A DNA stretch of 42,643 nucleotides from a virus (UHGV-1882081), one strand, 5' to 3'; positions 28,553 to 41,225 are shown, counted from the first letter of the stretch. Program-made: numbers and translations. The notes: a model not told the origin generated them from the letters alone.

Positions 28553-28625
28553 NNNNNNNNNNNNNNNNNNNNNNNNNNNNNNNNNNNNNNNNNNNNNNNN
28601 NNNNNNNNNNNNNNNNNNNNNNNNN
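28553..28625. other. run of 73 N (assembly gap or masked sequence)
   Basis: Literal n characters; junction of O-like and helicase genes is unresolved. Confidence 0.95.
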
Positions 28626-30313: not shown

Positions 30314-30964
30314 ATGAATACACAACTGATGGGTGAGCGTATTCGCGCTCGCAGAAAAGAACTCAAGATTAGGCAGGCTGCCCTTGGCAAGATGGTTGGC
30401 GTGTCTAATGTTGCTATTTCCCAATGGGAGCGATCTGAAACTGAGCCCAATGGCGAAAACCTATTGGCCTTAGCCAAGGCTTTGCAGTGCTCCCCTGATT
30501 ACCTGTTGAAAGGAGAGGATAGTCTTTCAAACATTGCCTATCACAGCAGGCATGATCCAAGAGGTTCGTATCCTCTAATTAGTTGGGTAAGCGCAGGATG
30601 TTGGATGGAAGCTGTAGAGCCATATCATAGGCGTGCAATAGATAACTGGTACGACACAACGGTAGATTGTTCTGAAGACTCTTTTTGGCTCGACGTTAAA
30701 GGCGATTCAATGACTGCCCCGGCAGGACTGAGTATTCCTGAGGGGATGATTATTCTCGTCGACCCAGAAGTCGAACCACGTAATGGAAAGCTGGTAGTCG
30801 CCAAACTTGAAGGAGAAAACGAGGCGACATTCAAAAAGTTAGTTATTGATGCCGGTAGAAAATTCCTGAAACCACTCAATCCACAATACCCAATGATTGA
30901 AATCAATGGGAACTGTAAAATCATTGGCGTTGTCGTTGATGCCAAGCTAGCAAACCTTCCTTAA
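30314..30964 (+). CDS. c2: C2 repressor (P22-type immunity repressor)
   Basis: 216-aa ORF MNTQLMGERIRARRKELKIRQAALGKMVGVSNVAISQWERSETEPNGENLLALAKALQCSPDYLLKG... matches P22 C2. Confidence 0.95.
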   Translation: MNTQLMGERIRARRKELKIRQAALGKMVGVSNVAISQWERSETEPNGENLLALAKALQCSPDYLLKGEDSLSNIAYHSRHDPRGSYPLISWVSAGCWMEAVEPYHRRAIDNWYDTTVDCSEDSFWLDVKGDSMTAPAGLSIPEGMIILVDPEVEPRNGKLVVAKLEGENEATFKKLVIDAGRKFLKPLNPQYPMIEINGNCKIIGVVVDAKLANLP

Positions 30965-31723: not shown

Positions 31724-31805
31724 NNNNNNNNNNNNNNNNNNNNNNNNNNNNNNNNNNNNNNNNNNNNNNNNNNNNNNNNNNNNNNNNNNNNNNNNNNNNN
31801 NNNNN
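31724..31805. other. run of 82 N (assembly gap or masked sequence)
   Basis: Literal n characters. Confidence 0.95.
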
Positions 31806-33766: not shown

Positions 33767-34474
33767 ATGGATTTGAATAAATTCGATGAGCCATTCAGCC
33801 CCGAAGATATCGAATGGCGAATACAGCAAAGCGGTAAAACACGCGATGGCAAGGTGTGGGCTATGGTGCTGGCTTATGTCACGAACCGGGCAATCATGAA
33901 ACGCCTGGACGATGTTTGCGGCAAAGCAGGATGGCGCAATGAATACCGCGATATTCCCAACAACGGCGGAGTTGAATGCGGCATATCAATCAAGATTGAT
34001 TCCGAATGGGTAACCAAATGGGATGCTGCTGAAAACACGCAGGTAGAAGCCGTCAAAGGTGGTCGTTCCGGTGCAATGAAGCGCGCTGCCGTTCAGTGGG
34101 GAATCGGTCGGTATCTGTATAACCTTGAGGAAGGTTTCGCACAAACATCTCTCGATAAAAAGCAGGGGTGGCACAGGGCAAAACTGAAGGATGGAACAGG
34201 ATTTTACTGGCTCCCTCCATCGCTTCCGGGATGGGCAATCCCAGCATCAGATAACAAACCATCACCAGAAAATACCAACCAGAAATCTCCATCGGTTGAC
34301 TGCGAACAAATCCTGAAAGACTTCAGCGATTATGCGTCAACAGAAACTGACAAGAAAAAACTCATCGAGCGTTATCAGCGTGACTGGCAATTAATGGCTG
34401 GCAATGAGGATGCGCAGGCTAAATGCGTTCAGGTAATGAACATCAGAGTTAACGAACTAAAACAGGCGGCATAA
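33767..34474 (+). CDS. single-strand annealing recombinase, Rad52/Sak-like core
   Basis: 235-aa ORF with Rad52-family signature VWAMVLAYVTNRAIMKRLDDVCGKAGWRNEY; immediately followed by an ssb gene. Confidence 0.65.
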   Translation: MDLNKFDEPFSPEDIEWRIQQSGKTRDGKVWAMVLAYVTNRAIMKRLDDVCGKAGWRNEYRDIPNNGGVECGISIKIDSEWVTKWDAAENTQVEAVKGGRSGAMKRAAVQWGIGRYLYNLEEGFAQTSLDKKQGWHRAKLKDGTGFYWLPPSLPGWAIPASDNKPSPENTNQKSPSVDCEQILKDFSDYASTETDKKKLIERYQRDWQLMAGNEDAQAKCVQVMNIRVNELKQAA

Positions 34475-34994: not shown

Positions 34995-35230
34995 ATGCCA
35001 GTGCCTCGGTATGGTGCGGATGACCCGCGCCGCTGTTCCGGCAATTCCGTATCGGAGGTGCTGGATAAATTCAGAAAAAACTACGATCGGATAATGTCGC
35101 TACCGCAGGAAACGAAAGAGGAAAAGGAATTTCGCCATTGCATATGGCTTGCAGAGAAAGAAGAACGCGAGCGAATTTACCAGACATCAATCCGACCATT
35201 CCGCAAAGCCACATATACCCACTTCCCTGA
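34995..35230 (+). CDS. hypothetical protein, N-terminal part (truncated by N-run)
   Basis: MPVPRYGADDPRRCSGNSVSEVLDKFRKNYDRIMSLPQETKEEKEFRHCIWLAEKEERERIYQ... runs into the gap. Confidence 0.4.
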
Positions 35231-35311
35231 NNNNNNNNNNNNNNNNNNNNNNNNNNNNNNNNNNNNNNNNNNNNNNNNNNNNNNNNNNNNNNNNNNNNNN
35301 NNNNNNNNNNN
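35231..35311. other. run of 81 N (assembly gap or masked sequence)
   Basis: Literal n characters. Confidence 0.95.
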
Positions 35312-35372
35312 CCGCGCCTGCGTAATTACCGCTCACGCTATGGCGCTATCAGTAATGACTGAGGAATTAACA

Positions 35373-35663
35373 ATGAAAACAATGAAGCTAAATATCGACC
35401 TCGGCAAATACGTTATTACCGGAACCAAACACGACCTGATTCTTAGTGAAAGAGGAATTATCAAAGAAGGTGAGAATGCAGGGAAAGAAACACTAAGTCG
35501 TATCGGTTATTACAGCAAGTTTGAGCATCTGGTTAAAGAGTTATGCAACCGTGAAATTCTGTTATCTCAAGCGCGGACGCTACAGGATATTCAGCAGCAT
35601 ATCGAGACTTTAGGTGTGTCACTTAGCATGGCCGTTGACCAGTTCGTGGAGAGTAAATCATGA
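35373..35663 (+). CDS. hypothetical protein
   Basis: GAGG RBS; [57 protein letters not shown]... (96 aa). Confidence 0.5.
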
Positions 35664-36213: not shown

Positions 36214-36572
36214 AAAGAGAGCCGAAAAAAACTGTGAAGATTAAGCGTTTCCGCTACTCACTTGATTGGTTCACCGTTGATGACGTTGAGTGCGAAGTCG
36301 GCAATGGATTCAGCTACGAAATGCAGTTTCGTCTCGGGGCATGGTATCTGATGGGGAAATATTACGATTACAAGGCTGAGCAGTGGTACGAGGATTATAG
36401 AAAATCATTCCAGCTGGAATGCCCAGCGGAAGCCGTTATTGCTCTTGGTAATAGCCTGACGAAGTTCAGCAGACTTCACGACTGTGACCACCTGACTGAA
36501 CACCTCGCTAAACTGCTGAAAGGCGTTGCTTCGCGCATTGCTATTAGTGAAGCAGAAGGAGGCAACCAGTGA
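36210..36572 (+). CDS. hypothetical protein
   Basis: 120-aa [58 protein letters not shown]... Confidence 0.55.
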   Translation: MKREPKKTVKIKRFRYSLDWFTVDDVECEVGNGFSYEMQFRLGAWYLMGKYYDYKAEQWYEDYRKSFQLECPAEAVIALGNSLTKFSRLHDCDHLTEHLAKLLKGVASRIAISEAEGGNQ

Positions 36573-37147
36573 GCAAGATTGATTATCAAAAGCTTCGTGA
36601 AATCGCTGAAAAAACAAAAATTGCTGGTGAAGCACCTGTAATGCCTTTCGATCAGCGAATTAATGCGCTTAACGATTTTATGAAGCACTTTTCGCCAGAT
36701 ATCGCGCTGGCATTGTTGGATGAACTGGAAAGAAACCAGCAATACATCAAACGCCGCGACCAGGAGAACGAGGATATTGCGCTAACGGTAGGGAAGCTGC
36801 GTGTTGAGCTGGAAGCCGCAGAGAAGCGCAACGCAAATTACAAAGCGAGAATGCATACATCCGACCGGTTCAAAGAACTGGACCTATTAATCGGGAAAAA
36901 CATTCTGGTCATGCAGGCTGCCATTATCGAATGGCAATCGACTGGCGACGCTAAAAGCGGACTGGCATGGATTTATAACACACTGTTTGGTCCAGGCGAA
37001 TTGCCGGACGAATCTGAGAAAGATGCTCAGGCCTACTTTAATCGCAAATATGCACCGATTGACGAAAAGCTCATGGAGCTTCACAAGTGGTTTTGGGAAC
37101 AAAGTGAAGCCGAGCGCGCCGCTGGCATTCGCATCAAAGGAGAGTGA
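36569..37147 (+). CDS. hypothetical early protein (coiled-coil)
   Basis: 192-aa ORF MSKIDYQKLREIAEKTKIAGEAPVMPFDQRINALNDFMKHFSPDIALALLDELERNQQ...; carries the 19-nt motif shared with 39509-39853. Confidence 0.55.
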   Translation: MSKIDYQKLREIAEKTKIAGEAPVMPFDQRINALNDFMKHFSPDIALALLDELERNQQYIKRRDQENEDIALTVGKLRVELEAAEKRNANYKARMHTSDRFKELDLLIGKNILVMQAAIIEWQSTGDAKSGLAWIYNTLFGPGELPDESEKDAQAYFNRKYAPIDEKLMELHKWFWEQSEAERAAGIRIKGE

Positions 37148-37148
37148 G

Positions 37149-37904
37149 ATGATTCACTACCACGGTGGGCCTATTACTCCTGATACGTGCGCAATGAGAG
37201 CATGGAAAGGGCGACATGCGTTTATCAGTTTTGCGCATTCAGGCCAGATCAATCTCGCGGCTGAATACTGTCAGTCGTTCGCGCTGGACAACGGTGCATT
37301 CACCGCCTGGAAAGCAGCTGGCAAAAACAAAATCGACTGGAGCGATTACTACGAGTTTGTTGCTCGCTGGAAGAATCACCCAGGATTCGATTTTGCCATT
37401 ATCCCGGATATTATTGATGGCGGAGAGGAGGAAAATGATGCGCTTCTGAATGAGTGGCCTCACGGAAAACTAGCTGGCGTTCCAGTGTGGCACATGAATG
37501 AAAGTGACGCGCGATTTATTCATTTGTGCAATGAGTTTCCGCGAGTGGCTATCGGTAGTTGTGGCGACTATGACGTAAAGCGCCCAACTCTTGCGGTAGC
37601 CAGAATGAAAGACCTGATTCGTCACATTGTTGATGGGCATGGTCAGCCGGTTACGAAACTACATGGATTGCGCATGTTAAATCCGCTGATATTCACAAAA
37701 TTACCCTTAGCCAGCGCAGATAGTACGAACGTCGCTCGAAACATCGGTATTGATAAAGCCTGGTCTGGGGCTTATGCACCTGCAAGTAAAGAGACACGCG
37801 CAGCATTAATGGTAGAACGGATTGAGGCACACAATAGCCCTGGTTCTCTTGCGTATTGTGAACAACGCGACCGCTTTGAAATGCAATTGCAACTAGCAGT
37901 TTAA
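37149..37904 (+). CDS. hypothetical protein (251 aa), largest uncharacterised early-left gene
   Basis: MIHYHGGPITPDTCAMRAWKGRHAFISFAHSGQINLAAEYCQSFALDNGAFTAWKAAGKNKIDWSDYYEFVARWKNHPGFDFAIIPDIIDGGEEEND...; start taken at internal Met of the 305-aa ORF; no function assignable by eye. Confidence 0.55.
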   Translation: MIHYHGGPITPDTCAMRAWKGRHAFISFAHSGQINLAAEYCQSFALDNGAFTAWKAAGKNKIDWSDYYEFVARWKNHPGFDFAIIPDIIDGGEEENDALLNEWPHGKLAGVPVWHMNESDARFIHLCNEFPRVAIGSCGDYDVKRPTLAVARMKDLIRHIVDGHGQPVTKLHGLRMLNPLIFTKLPLASADSTNVARNIGIDKAWSGAYAPASKETRAALMVERIEAHNSPGSLAYCEQRDRFEMQLQLAV

Positions 37905-37914
37905 GGACTAACAA

Positions 37915-38544
37915 ATGACCACTATTACCAAAGAACGTATTGAATTGTTCATTAAAAATCCGCTTGAAAACGGGCTTACTCGTGGCGAACAAATGGAACT
38001 GGCACGAATTGCACTGGCATCACTGGAACGCGAACTGATTCGCCACGAGCATGCCAAATGGTCTGACTCCACATTTGGCTGCGTTGGCCCCATTGGTCCA
38101 CTGAAACACCTCTCAAAAGAGGCTCTGGAAGCCGCAGCCGAACCAGACGATCTCAGCGAGTGGGCTGATATGCAGTTCCTGTTGTGGGATGCACAGCGCC
38201 GTGCTGGCATCAGCGATGCTGAAATTACCGCTGCTATGGAAGATAAATTGAAGATCAACATGGAGCGCCAGTGGCCTGAACCAAAAGATGGTGAGCCTCG
38301 CTTGCACATTAAAGAACGCGGCAACTCTCCGGTAATTCCGGATGGTTGGATAAGCTGTAGTGAGCGAATGCCGGAAGAAACGGGTGACATTATTGTTGTT
38401 TCTGATGGCATTGTAATGTCAGGGATTTCTTATTCTCGTCGTGACGGGTTCTATATAACCGCATTGGAGTACGACGACGATGAGCCAATTGGCGGTGTAA
38501 CTCACTGGATGCCGCTACCGGAACCGCCGCAGGAGGTGAAGTGA
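37915..38544 (+). CDS. phage protein with C-terminal DUF551-type segment (W..PLPEPP)
   Basis: 209-aa ORF; C-terminus ...DGWISCSERMPEETGDIIVV...GVTHWMPLPEPPQEV resembles the DUF551 signature common in lambdoid prophages. Confidence 0.6.
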   Translation: MTTITKERIELFIKNPLENGLTRGEQMELARIALASLERELIRHEHAKWSDSTFGCVGPIGPLKHLSKEALEAAAEPDDLSEWADMQFLLWDAQRRAGISDAEITAAMEDKLKINMERQWPEPKDGEPRLHIKERGNSPVIPDGWISCSERMPEETGDIIVVSDGIVMSGISYSRRDGFYITALEYDDDEPIGGVTHWMPLPEPPQEVK

Positions 38545-38822
38545 TGGACTCCTTCGCGAAATATACGATTATTGACTGGATAGCCTTCCTTCAGGTTTTG
38601 CTCATCTGGTTTTATATGGCTTACAGGAGTGGGCAGTGGATTGTCAACATGGCCTGTAGCAGGGGATGGCGTTGGTGGAACCGAAAGAATAAAAAAGCAC
38701 TGGCATTGGATTCGTTTTACGAAGCATTCAATCTTAACAGCCTTCAGCCTGGTTCTGTCATTGTAGTCACCACTCAAAGCGGCATGACCATTCAGATTCA
38801 TAAACCAAAAGAGGAAAAATGA
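38541..38822 (+). CDS. hypothetical protein with one hydrophobic segment
   Basis: 93-aa ORF MMDSFAKYTIIDWIAFLQVLLIWFYMAYRSGQWIVNMA... Confidence 0.45.
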   Translation: MMDSFAKYTIIDWIAFLQVLLIWFYMAYRSGQWIVNMACSRGWRWWNRKNKKALALDSFYEAFNLNSLQPGSVIVVTTQSGMTIQIHKPKEEK

Positions 38823-38967
38823 TGTGGCCTATATGTGTTAATTGCGGACGGATGTGCCTATCTGGATGGTGCCGAAAGTGCGACAAATGCACGAAGCAAA
38901 GACAATAACAATCCTCGCACTCGCGGGGATTTCTTTTATCTGAACTCGCTACGGCGAGTTTTGTTTT

Positions 38968-39958: not shown

Positions 39959-40177
39959 ATGTACTTGACTCTTCAGGAGTGGAACGCTCGCCAGCGACGC
40001 CCAAGAAGCCTTGAAACAGTTCGTCGATGGGTGCGCGAATGCAGGATATTCCCTCCTCCGGTTAAGGATGGAAGAGAGTATCTGTTCCACGAATCAGCGG
40101 TAAAGGTTGACTTAAATCGACCAATAACAGGTAGCCTTTTGAAGAGGATCAGAAATGGGAAGAAGGCGAAGTCATGA
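39959..40177 (+). CDS. xis: excisionase Xis (lambda-type)
   Basis: 72-aa ORF MYLTLQEWNARQRRPRSLETVRRWVRECRIFPPPVKDGREYLFHESAVKVDLNRPITGSLLKRIRNGKKAKS matches lambda Xis; overlaps int start. Confidence 0.95.
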   Translation: MYLTLQEWNARQRRPRSLETVRRWVRECRIFPPPVKDGREYLFHESAVKVDLNRPITGSLLKRIRNGKKAKS

Positions 40178-41225
40178 GCGCCGGGATTTACCCCCTAACC
40201 TTTATATAAGAAACAATGGATATTACTGCTACAGGGACCCAAGGACGGGTAAAGAGTTTGGATTAGGCCGAGACAGGAGGATAGCAATCACTGAAGCAAT
40301 ACAGGCCAACATTGAGTTATTTTCAGGACACAAACACAAGCCTCTGACAGCGAGAATCAACAGTGATAATTCTGTTACGTTACATTCATGGCTTGATCGC
40401 TACGAAAAAATCCTCGCCAGCAGAGGAATCAAGCAGAAGACACTTATAAATTACATGAGCAAAATTAAAGCAATAAGGAGGGGTCTGCCTGATGCTCCAC
40501 TTGAAGACATCACCACAAAAGAAATTGCGGCAATGCTCAATGGATACATAGACGAGGGCAAGGCGGCGTCAGCCAAGTTAATCAGATCAACACTGAGCGA
40601 TGCATTCCGAGAGGCAATAGCTGAAGGACATATAACAATAAACCCGGTCGCTGCCACTCGCGCAGCAAAATCAGAGGTAAGGAGATCAAGACTTACGGCT
40701 GACGAATACCTGAAAATTTATCAAGCAGCAGAATCATCACCATGTTGGCTTAGACTTGCAATGGAACTGGCTGTTGTTACCGGGCAGCGTGTTGGTGATT
40801 TATGCGAAATGAAGTGGTCTGATATCGTAGATGGCTATCTTTATGTCGAGCAAAGCAAAACCGGCGTAAAAATTGCCATCCCAACAACATTGCATGTTGA
40901 TGCTCTTGGGATATCAATGAAGGAAACACTTGATAAATGCAAAGAGATTCTTGGCGGAGAAACCATAATTGCATCTACTCGTCGTGAACCGCTTTCATCC
41001 GGCACAGTATCAAGGTATTTTATGCGCGCACGAAAAGCATCAGGTCTTTCCTTCGAAGGGGATCCGCCTACCTTTCACGAGTTGCGCAGCTTGTCTGCAA
41101 GACTCTATGAGAAGCAGATAAGCGATAAGTTTGCTCAACATCTTCTCGGGCATAAGTCGGACACCATGGCATCACAGTATCGTGATGACAGAGGCAGGGA
41201 GTGGGACAAAATTGAAATCAAATAA
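40155..41225 (+). CDS. int: integrase Int (lambda tyrosine recombinase)
   Basis: 356-aa ORF MGRRRSHERRDLPPNLYIRNNGYYCYRDPRTGKEFGLGRDRRIAITEAIQANIELFSGHKH... matches lambda Int in sequence and length. Confidence 0.97.
   Translation: MGRRRSHERRDLPPNLYIRNNGYYCYRDPRTGKEFGLGRDRRIAITEAIQANIELFSGHKHKPLTARINSDNSVTLHSWLDRYEKILASRGIKQKTLINYMSKIKAIRRGLPDAPLEDITTKEIAAMLNGYIDEGKAASAKLIRSTLSDAFREAIAEGHITINPVAATRAAKSEVRRSRLTADEYLKIYQAAESSPCWLRLAMELAVVTGQRVGDLCEMKWSDIVDGYLYVEQSKTGVKIAIPTTLHVDALGISMKETLDKCKEILGGETIIASTRREPLSSGTVSRYFMRARKASGLSFEGDPPTFHELRSLSARLYEKQISDKFAQHLLGHKSDTMASQYRDDRGREWDKIEIK

Follow-up and report, generated by a model that had tools for sequence, protein, structure and literature searches.

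What do the two adjacent genes in the early-left region of a lambda-like Escherichia coli prophage encode, and do they act together? The question is raised by positions 37149 to 38544 of UHGV-1882081, a stretch of viral DNA of 42,643 nucleotides (nt) that was analysed at its full length and is referred to here as the window. An earlier note, made from the sequence alone, had described at this place two large uncharacterised genes of the early-left (pL) operon and had treated them as a single finding. The first of them (gene 1) very probably belongs to the DpdA family, and we consider it probable, with less assurance, that it is a stand-alone DpdA-family DNA transglycosylase inserting a 7-deazaguanine base made by the host. 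The second (gene 2) is a common EaA-type gene of the ea regions of P22-like and lambda-like phages. The genes and the predicted catalytic motifs of gene 1 are located as follows:

37149-37904, + strand: gene 1, 251 amino acids (aa), predicted stand-alone ('singleton') DpdA-family protein
37287-37301, + strand: LDNGAF motif of gene 1, codons D47-N-G-A-F51, with the predicted general acid/base Asp and base-stacking Phe
37713-37724, + strand: SADS motif of gene 1, codons S189-A-D191-S192, with the predicted nucleophile Asp
37915-38544, + strand: gene 2, 209 aa, EaA-type mosaic of a short N-terminal module, DUF550 and DUF551

In the PHROG library gene 1 matched phrog_887, "queuine tRNA-ribosyltransferase" (E=2.6e-101), which is also matched by the DpdA proteins of CAjan (gp35) and 9g (gp03), both of which have been experimentally shown to insert preQ0 into DNA (PMC6884629). 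Three alignments of the gene 1 family were used, consisting of 36 sequences (A1), 48 diverse homologues (A2) and 24 sequences including the DpdA proteins of CAjan, 9g, MED16 and 7-11 (A3). Comparison of the A2 profile with the CAjan and 9g proteins using hhalign yielded probabilities of 98.9% (E=1.3e-17) and 98.4% (E=4.5e-15), respectively, and paired LDNGAF with LDSGAFS, KLHGL with KLHAFG and SADST with SCDSS. A tblastn search seeded with 9g DpdA recovered gene 1 directly (E=2.7e-5). BLASTP alignments spanning 200-220 aa showed gene 1 to be 39% identical to the DpdA of Pantoea phage MED16 (E=2e-43) and 35% identical to that of Salmonella phage 7-11 (E=8e-32). The link of gene 1 to TGT and to solved DpdA structures rests on published HHpred results for MED16 DpdA, which matched 2ASH with 99.2% probability (PMC8306585).

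Closer phage relatives were identified by tblastn in Stx1a_EH2115 (98% identity), BTP1 and SPN3UB (92%), SfI and Vibrio phage Athena1 (67%) and HK106 (35%), and the protein is conserved at ~65% identity from E. coli to Vibrio, Aeromonas and Shewanella. The RefSeq phage records of the protein (BTP1, SPN3UB) read 'queuine tRNA-ribosyltransferase'. Hutinet et al. 2019 listed BTP1, SPN3UB, SfI, Athena1, HK106, SEN1, SE131, PEAT2 and 7-11 as 'DpdA only' in their Supplementary Data 1, and noted that the function of the gamma-proteobacterial "singleton DpdA" cluster "will require more studies" (PMC6884629). Since the 92% identical proteins of BTP1 and SPN3UB are in that list, gene 1 is a member of an already catalogued group, and at family level neither of the two genes can be called truly uncharacterised: both fall into catalogued families. 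The accompanying suggestions of an enzymatic role for gene 1 and of possible DNA modification by early-left accessory genes are on the other hand upheld by the DpdA-type homology found with PHROG 887, hhalign and BLASTP. We found no experimental work on the gene 1 subfamily in a literature search for DpdA together with lambdoid phages, HK106 or BTP1, and the BTP1 papers are silent on the gene.

In bacterial DpdA the roles of general acid/base and nucleophile fall to Asp95 and Asp256, respectively, while Phe99 provides base stacking and Asp130 and His181 recognise the base (PMC10164549). Of the gene 1 residues, D47, D191 and S192 show no variation in any of the three alignments. The invariant columns of A3, in which the family is aligned with the four DpdA proteins named above, are D47, H172, D191 and S192, and those conserved at 90% or more are H5, A50, P86, P112, H115, G136, G165, P186, S189 and E226. 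F51 stands four residues past D47, the same D-x3-F spacing as that of Asp95 and Phe99. From this conservation and by analogy to the bacterial enzyme we infer that D47 is the counterpart of the acid/base Asp95 and D191 that of the nucleophile Asp256. The conserved-looking motifs picked out in gene 1 by the earlier note turned out to be the most conserved active-site segments of the family, with D87 nearly invariant and D191 and S192 invariant.

The structure predicted by AlphaFold depended on the depth of the alignment: with a shallow one the gene 1 model reached a pLDDT of 73, whereas AlphaFold2 with a diverse one gave a pLDDT of 91.7 and a pTM of 0.89 and produced a compact (beta/alpha)8 barrel of alternating strand-helix topology. 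A Foldseek search of BFVD with the latter model resulted in 29 matches at E<=1e-3, nearly all the named ones being phage 'queuine tRNA-ribosyltransferase' or DpdA proteins. They included those of Dinoroseobacter R5C and Mycobacterium Bella96 (E 2e-9 to 9e-4), which are both in the list of Hutinet et al.

The genomic context of gene 1 relatives was scanned in one genome per species with a profile built from A1. This yielded 62 loci, from Enterobacterales, Aeromonas, Burkholderiales, Nitrosomonadales and several metagenome-assembled genomes. The usual neighbours are S24-type repressors (26 loci), CII regulators, integrases and replication genes, that is, the early region of temperate phages, and clustering of the neighbours revealed no partner gene family conserved across the loci. 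Deazaguanine genes adjoin five of the 62, the DpdA-like genes there being distant members, 49-62% identical to gene 1. In Paraburkholderia (L052) genes for QueC, GTP cyclohydrolase I, PTPS/QueD and radical-SAM QueE lie beside the DpdA-like gene, in L049 a QueE-like radical-SAM gene is located directly upstream of it, and in three further loci (L034, L035 and L056) it adjoins a transporter of the Vut_1/YhhQ family. An MT-A70 DNA methyltransferase gene is adjacent in some loci. The neighbourhoods with preQ0 genes constitute independent support for a role of the family in 7-deazaguanine DNA modification.

Some of these loci are of interest in their own right. In Paraburkholderia sp. HD33-4 (L052, 5947-11477) the DpdA-like gene, with 51% identity to gene 1, precedes, in the same orientation, an ORF (open reading frame) with a weak ParB_N match and then the genes for QueC, GTP cyclohydrolase I, PTPS-QueD and QueE; this is a complete preQ0-DNA module around the 'singleton' clade, and its ParB-like ORF recalls DpdB of the bacterial Dpd system. 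ParB-HTH proteins are encoded at variable distance in nine of the 62 loci. In one Erwinia prophage (L020, 3906-6004) such a protein and an MT-A70 DNA methyltransferase are encoded directly upstream of the DpdA-like gene, and in another (L009, 3215-4450) the ParB-HTH protein is fused to DUF550.

How might a stand-alone DpdA operate in this prophage? Gene 1 would be expressed early in lytic growth. Asp191 of its minimal (beta/alpha)8 barrel would attack C1' of selected deoxyguanosines in duplex DNA, with Asp47 acting as general acid/base; guanine would depart and be replaced, by double displacement via a covalent Asp191-DNA intermediate, with a 7-deazaguanine base, preQ0 or possibly ADG or preQ1. 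Tblastn searches with CAjan and 9g queries detected no homologues of FolE, QueD, QueE, QueC, Gat-QueC or YhhQ in the window, and a preQ0 pathway of the prophage's own was accordingly rejected; it is by the lack of such genes that the 'DpdA only' group is defined. The enzyme would therefore draw on the host pool. The queuosine pathway is present in E. coli, the queA and tgt genes of which were seen. The base would be supplied by the FolE-QueD-QueE-QueC part of that pathway, and the modification would be post-replicative, sparse (roughly 0.01-0.3% of G) and probably motif-specific.

Sparse modification is expected because the host pool limits the supply and because in the closest phages assayed the modification reaches only 0.02-0.13% of G: 7-11 and MED16, which have dpdA only and no preQ0 pathway, carry dADG at ~0.02% and ~0.13% of G, respectively (PMC6884629, PMC8306585). 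In these two phages the tie between dpdA and the modified base is correlative. Expression of 9g DpdA alone in E. coli resulted in modification of 0.03-0.3% of G in plasmid DNA (PMC6884629). The benefit to the phage may be that some sites of its DNA are protected from host nucleases; in MED16, dADG had little effect on the restriction enzymes tested (PMC8306585).

Gene 2 contains two domains:

38038-38325, + strand: DUF550 (PF04447), residues 42-137, E=5.1e-42, 142.5 bits (cut-off 23), profile positions 1-96 of 97
38344-38532, + strand: DUF551 (PF04448), residues 144-206, ending in HWMPLPEPP, E=3e-15, 57.2 bits (cut-off 22), profile positions 1-68 of 68

The DUF551-type tail had been recognised correctly, but the main domain, PF04447, had been missed. 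The latter family, formerly DUF550, is now named dATP/dGTP pyrophosphohydrolase and is MazG-like and all-alpha. Gene 2 has an intact acidic motif of the EXXE...EXXD metal-binding type, E69-x-x-E72 ... E82-x-x-D85, and in a weak phmmer alignment these acidic residues pair with EEIGE and EVAD of MazZ (7ODY). The DUF5664-DUF550 protein of Acinetobacter phage SH-Ab 15497 converts dATP and dGTP to dNMP + PPi (PMC12884076). The DUF550 domain of gene 2 is 37% identical to that enzyme (AUG85482) over 59 aa, with EWAD aligned to EFAD. Gene 2 is thus predicted to be a (d)NTP pyrophosphohydrolase, which would convert a (d)NTP, most likely of the dGTP/dATP type, to (d)NMP + PPi and may alter or clean the nucleotide pool during lytic growth; our confidence in the substrate is moderate to low.

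The N-terminal 40 residues, DUF550 and DUF551 each match different PHROGs, and PADLOC gave no match for gene 2. The exact 209-aa mosaic is rare: its sequence was found on 16 contigs, under the source name 'DUF550 domain-containing protein', and no other sequence joins it in clustering at 90% identity. One closely related E. coli genome carries the gene in broken form.

It is possible, if rather unlikely in our view, that gene 2 is not a dATP/dGTP pyrophosphohydrolase and acts on another nucleotide (a non-canonical dNTP, (p)ppGpp or a defence signal), or that DUF551 makes it a targeting or binding protein with little catalysis. MazG-like enzymes vary widely in substrate, and DUF551 is a domain of unknown function. 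The only biochemical anchor of PF04447, AUG85482, is distant and has two domains; it matches PF04447 at 33 bits only and also matches PF18909/DUF5664. As DUF5664 alone is an active pyrophosphohydrolase (PMC12884076), the Pfam name makes an activity of DUF550 by itself look better anchored than it is. Also speaking against the predicted activity is the fact that the window contains no homologues of PurZ, DatZ or DpoZ, so that the rationale known from Z-genome phages does not apply to gene 2; on the same ground the prophage was rejected as a Z-genome phage. What nevertheless favours a pyrophosphohydrolase is the strong, full-length match to PF04447 with its intact acidic motif, as well as the (d)GTP/dATP specificity of the related MazG-like enzymes MazZ and MazZ-2 (PMC12884076).

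For gene 1, a number of observations weigh against a transglycosylase that places 7-deazaguanine in DNA. The protein has no match in Pfam, NCBIfam or PADLOC, and a Pfam scan of 48 diverse homologues returned noise only. Sequence searches of the PDB with the single protein and with the A1, A2 and A3 profiles retrieved no TGT or DpdA, only coiled-coil noise, and hhalign of A2 against the single sequence of E. coli Tgt gave no match (probability 0.7%). Foldseek searches of the PDB found generic TIM barrels only, with the pLDDT 91.7 model (E ~7e-3, TM 0.45-0.5) as well as with the pLDDT 73 model. It was only with the latter, weaker model that a TGT structure, 2pot, came up, at rank 25, and the 50 matches listed for each search do not include the bacterial DpdA structure 7UI4. 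Past D191 the protein has no conserved cluster of Cys and His residues; only H228 and C237 are found there, and A1 and A2 show neither residue to be conserved. A structural Zn site like that of TGT and bacterial DpdA thus appears to be absent. Of the 62 loci, 57 have no que or yhhQ gene nearby. Hutinet et al. have cautioned that the function of singleton DpdAs may have diverged, and mycobacteriophage Orion, which bears a singleton, was without modification, though its host lacks preQ0 (PMC6884629). Finally, the base inserted by gene 1 is uncertain, because MED16 and 7-11 carry dADG rather than dPreQ0.

Most of these points, together with the shortness of gene 1 (251 aa, without the C-terminal extension of the 306- and 317-aa CAjan and 9g proteins), would also suit a barrel derived from DpdA/TGT whose function has changed, to that of an excising DNA glycosylase, of an enzyme acting on tRNA or on free nucleotides or nucleosides, or of a transglycosylase for something other than 7-deazaguanine. 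We consider such a change unlikely. The validated CAjan and 9g proteins are likewise without a Pfam match or a PDB match by HMMER, and the negative results of gene 1 in these databases therefore carry little weight. Moreover, the pair of Asp residues needed for double-displacement transglycosylation is invariant, and the nearest assayed dpdA-only phages, MED16 and 7-11, do carry 7-deazaguanine in their DNA. Family members 49-62% identical to gene 1 sit in clusters for preQ0 synthesis or transport, and the MT-A70 DNA methyltransferase beside some of them points to DNA as the target. The reading of gene 1 as a stand-alone DNA transglycosylase is the one we prefer.

The treatment of the two genes as one finding proved unjustified. 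Just three of the 62 loci from other species contain a DUF550 gene at most 6 kb away from the DpdA-like gene, and in HK106 and SfI the DpdA-like gene has no DUF550 neighbour. The order ead - DpdA - eaA(DUF550) is common to the window, Salmonella phage BTP1 and S107, and the gene pair, at a coverage of at least 80% of the query, is present in 138 complete E. coli genomes. Parts of the 1396-base two-gene query, mostly the gene 2 portion, were found in 2809 of 5426 E. coli genomes, whereas gene 1 by itself was found in 303; adjacency is therefore expected from the mosaicism of the ea region. Genes 1 and 2 are independent, and we rejected them as a functional pair on the grounds of the low count of shared loci, the lack of a conserved partner and the state of HK106 and SfI. 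A two-gene DNA-modification module, in which the MazG-like enzyme would adjust the dGTP pool or clear a deazaguanine nucleotide so that modification by DpdA succeeds, might be read into the 10-nt spacing and shared gene order, into the work of DUF550-type enzymes alongside base-replacement pathways in Z-genome phages (PMC12884076) and into the DUF550/ParB-HTH fusion of L009, ~1.5 kb upstream of the DpdA-like gene, but is very improbable given the distribution just described and the chemistry of DpdA, a post-replicative base exchange that needs no change of the nucleotide pool (PMC10516641).

The window is a lambda-like (lambdoid) E. coli prophage, at the right end of which an excisionase gene is followed by a lambda-type integrase gene and then by the chromosomal gene ybhC. 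The position of ybhC next to the integrase gene marks the attLambda neighbourhood as the integration site. The early-left region also contains an N-like ORF and an SSB-like ORF, followed by a run of small "ea" genes. The features that bear on the setting and expression of genes 1 and 2 are:

about 30.3 kb to the integrase gene, + strand: early-left (pL) operon
30314-30964: cI-type repressor
33767-34474: 235-aa ORF, in the position held by erf in related phages
34995-35663, + strand: 222-aa ORF of the same operon, partly N-masked, longer than gene 2
36569-37147, + strand: Ead/Ea22-like gene upstream of gene 1 (PF13935, E=1.2e-21)
37137-37142, + strand: Shine-Dalgarno sequence AAGGAG of gene 1, 6 nt 5' of the ATG, read from the sequence
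37902-37907, + strand: Shine-Dalgarno sequence TAAGGA of gene 2, overlapping the TAA stop of gene 1, read from the sequence
38541-38822: DUF4752 gene, just before the hairpin gap
38910-38931 and 38942-38961, + strand: pair of successive terminator-like hairpins carrying T-runs
39959-40177: excisionase
40155-41225: lambda-type integrase
from 41360: ybhC, chromosomal

Both ORFs, of 251 and 209 aa, lie on the + strand where the earlier note had placed them, and the peptides quoted from them, IIPDIIDGGEEEND, LASADSTNVARN and HWMPLPEPP, are all present; the statement that they are the largest genes of the pL operon without a confident function needs to be amended slightly, as the 222-aa ORF, which likewise has no assigned function, exceeds gene 2. 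The gene 1 ORF is the ATG-started portion of a longer ORF that begins with TTG at 36987, and all homologues begin with MIHYHGGP. Genes 1 and 2 are real genes rather than chance ORFs, as gene 1 has more than 7,700 homologues (best E=1e-163) and its exact protein occurs on at least 1000 contigs, where it is always unnamed, and as gene 2 contains two strong Pfam domains. The TGA stop codon of the preceding Ead/Ea22-like gene, at 37145-37147, ends one base before the ATG of gene 1, implying translational coupling in the operon; the gap between genes 1 and 2 measures 10 nt.

Between 35600 and 40200 no promoter-like site was found on the + strand, and the single site detected is on the - strand (the expectation from shuffled sequences is 6.5 ± 2.4, both strands counted), so that the expression of both genes relies on transcription reading through from pL. 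We rejected gene 1 as a lysogeny-expressed moron with its own promoter, given this result and the tight coupling of its translation to the upstream gene. Pfam identified in the nine ORFs of the pL operon between 35821 and 39853 only Ead/Ea22, DUF550, DUF551 and DUF4752 domains, or none. Both genes are accessory genes, carried by a lambdoid prophage at attLambda in its N-antiterminated early-left operon.

Two further features of this region may be recorded. The hairpin pair at 38910-38961 occupies a 145-nt gap between the DUF4752 gene and the next ORF (38968), the sole sizeable intergenic gap in that part of the operon, and may mark a mosaic-module boundary or a point of N-dependent read-through. 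Runs of N occur in the window at 28553-28625 (73 bases), 31724-31805 (82) and 35231-35311 (81), in or at the edge of coding sequence: the first lies at a replication-gene junction, the second shortly downstream of the N-like gene and the third within the 222-aa ORF. All three resemble deliberate masking rather than assembly gaps.

Gene 1 was found in 303 of 5426 complete E. coli genomes (5.6%) and is labelled "hypothetical protein" in RefSeq in all of them. Two alleles can be distinguished in E. coli, one in ~204 genomes at nucleotide identities of at least 95% and one in 99 genomes at 60-80%, the latter adjoining a DUF1317 gene. Five of the E. coli copies are plasmid-borne and possibly belong to phage-plasmids. 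A GenBank record of 1719 bp, OR850331.1, 'Staphylococcus phage SA 1298 Kay', encodes a protein that is 92% identical to gene 1 and the same as that of Salmonella P22-like phages; it is almost certainly a mislabelled or contaminant enterobacterial sequence.

These results do not disclose a new kind of system, since proteins nearly identical to gene 1 have previously been catalogued as DpdA. They do reveal a gap in annotation: no Pfam, NCBIfam or PADLOC model recognises the DpdA subfamily of gene 1, which PGAP misses as well, and a dedicated model would correct thousands of annotations. Gene 1 also bears on a question posed in 2019, whether the stand-alone DpdAs of temperate gamma-proteobacterial phages modify DNA with host preQ0, and why. 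A lambda-like E. coli prophage is the most tractable place to put it to the test, as que mutants and assay strains exist. Should the enzyme be active, long-read sequencing, restriction mapping and defence studies of such lysogens and phages must allow for sparse deazaguanine sites.

A further-reaching idea, which we offer as a long shot, is that the stand-alone DpdA of temperate enterobacterial phages is something other than a weak version of the enzymes for bulk anti-restriction modification, and draws on the host queuosine pathway to place a rare, site-specific 7-deazaguanine mark, perhaps using ADG straight from the QueC reaction, or preQ1, as an epigenetic signal or a counter-defence of lambdoid phages. 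If this were true, ~5% of complete E. coli genomes would carry a prophage able to write 7-deazaguanine into DNA, by means of a minimal, Zn-free transglycosylase of 251 aa that needs no DpdB-type ATPase.

Compared with known systems, gene 2 is linked to the enzymes of Z-genome phages (SH-Ab 15497, and S-2L MazZ, 7ODY) by its full PF04447 domain and its MazG-like acidic motif. It differs from the SH-Ab 15497 enzyme in having no DUF5664 and a C-terminal DUF551 instead, and in residing in a window devoid of PurZ, DatZ and DpoZ. As to its location, gene 2 occupies the eaA position of P22-like ea regions, as does EaA of P22 and BTP1.

Gene 1 resembles the bacterial DpdA (the Dpd system of S. Montevideo, PDB 7UI4) and TGT (PF01702) in its predicted TIM barrel, acid/base Asp, D-x3-F spacing and nucleophile Asp, but has no direct match to them that sequence comparison or Foldseek could detect, and lacks the Zn subdomain and the large insertions. 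In contrast to the Dpd system, neither DpdB (a ParB-like ATPase) nor dpdC-K genes are found near gene 1, and unlike that of TGT, its target is presumed to be DNA rather than tRNA. With the DpdA1 proteins of CAjan and 9g (Queuovirinae) gene 1 shares the PHROG and the catalytic motifs LDxGAF and SxDS, yet the identity is only 18-21%, and those proteins (306 and 317 aa) have N- and C-terminal extensions. Their genes are encoded together with folE, queD, queE and queC or gat-queC, and 25-32% of G is modified (PMC10516641); as the window, unlike these phages, has no pathway genes, modification is expected at a low level.

The DpdAs of MED16 and 7-11 are closer. Like gene 1, they are stand-alone, have all the conserved motifs and rely on the preQ0 pathway of an enterobacterial host, although they belong to virulent phages or to another phage type and their identity to gene 1 is moderate. 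The closest are the members of the 'DpdA only' group (BTP1 SIU02687, SPN3UB YP_007011024, SfI, HK106 and Athena1), which are of the same family, the 92% identical BTP1 and SPN3UB proteins being essentially the same protein. In BTP1, a phage without preQ0 genes, the counterpart of gene 1 is also located in the early-left 'ea' region, between ead/Ea22 and eaA. Nothing substantive sets gene 1 apart from this group, of which it is another allele, carried by an E. coli prophage at attLambda.

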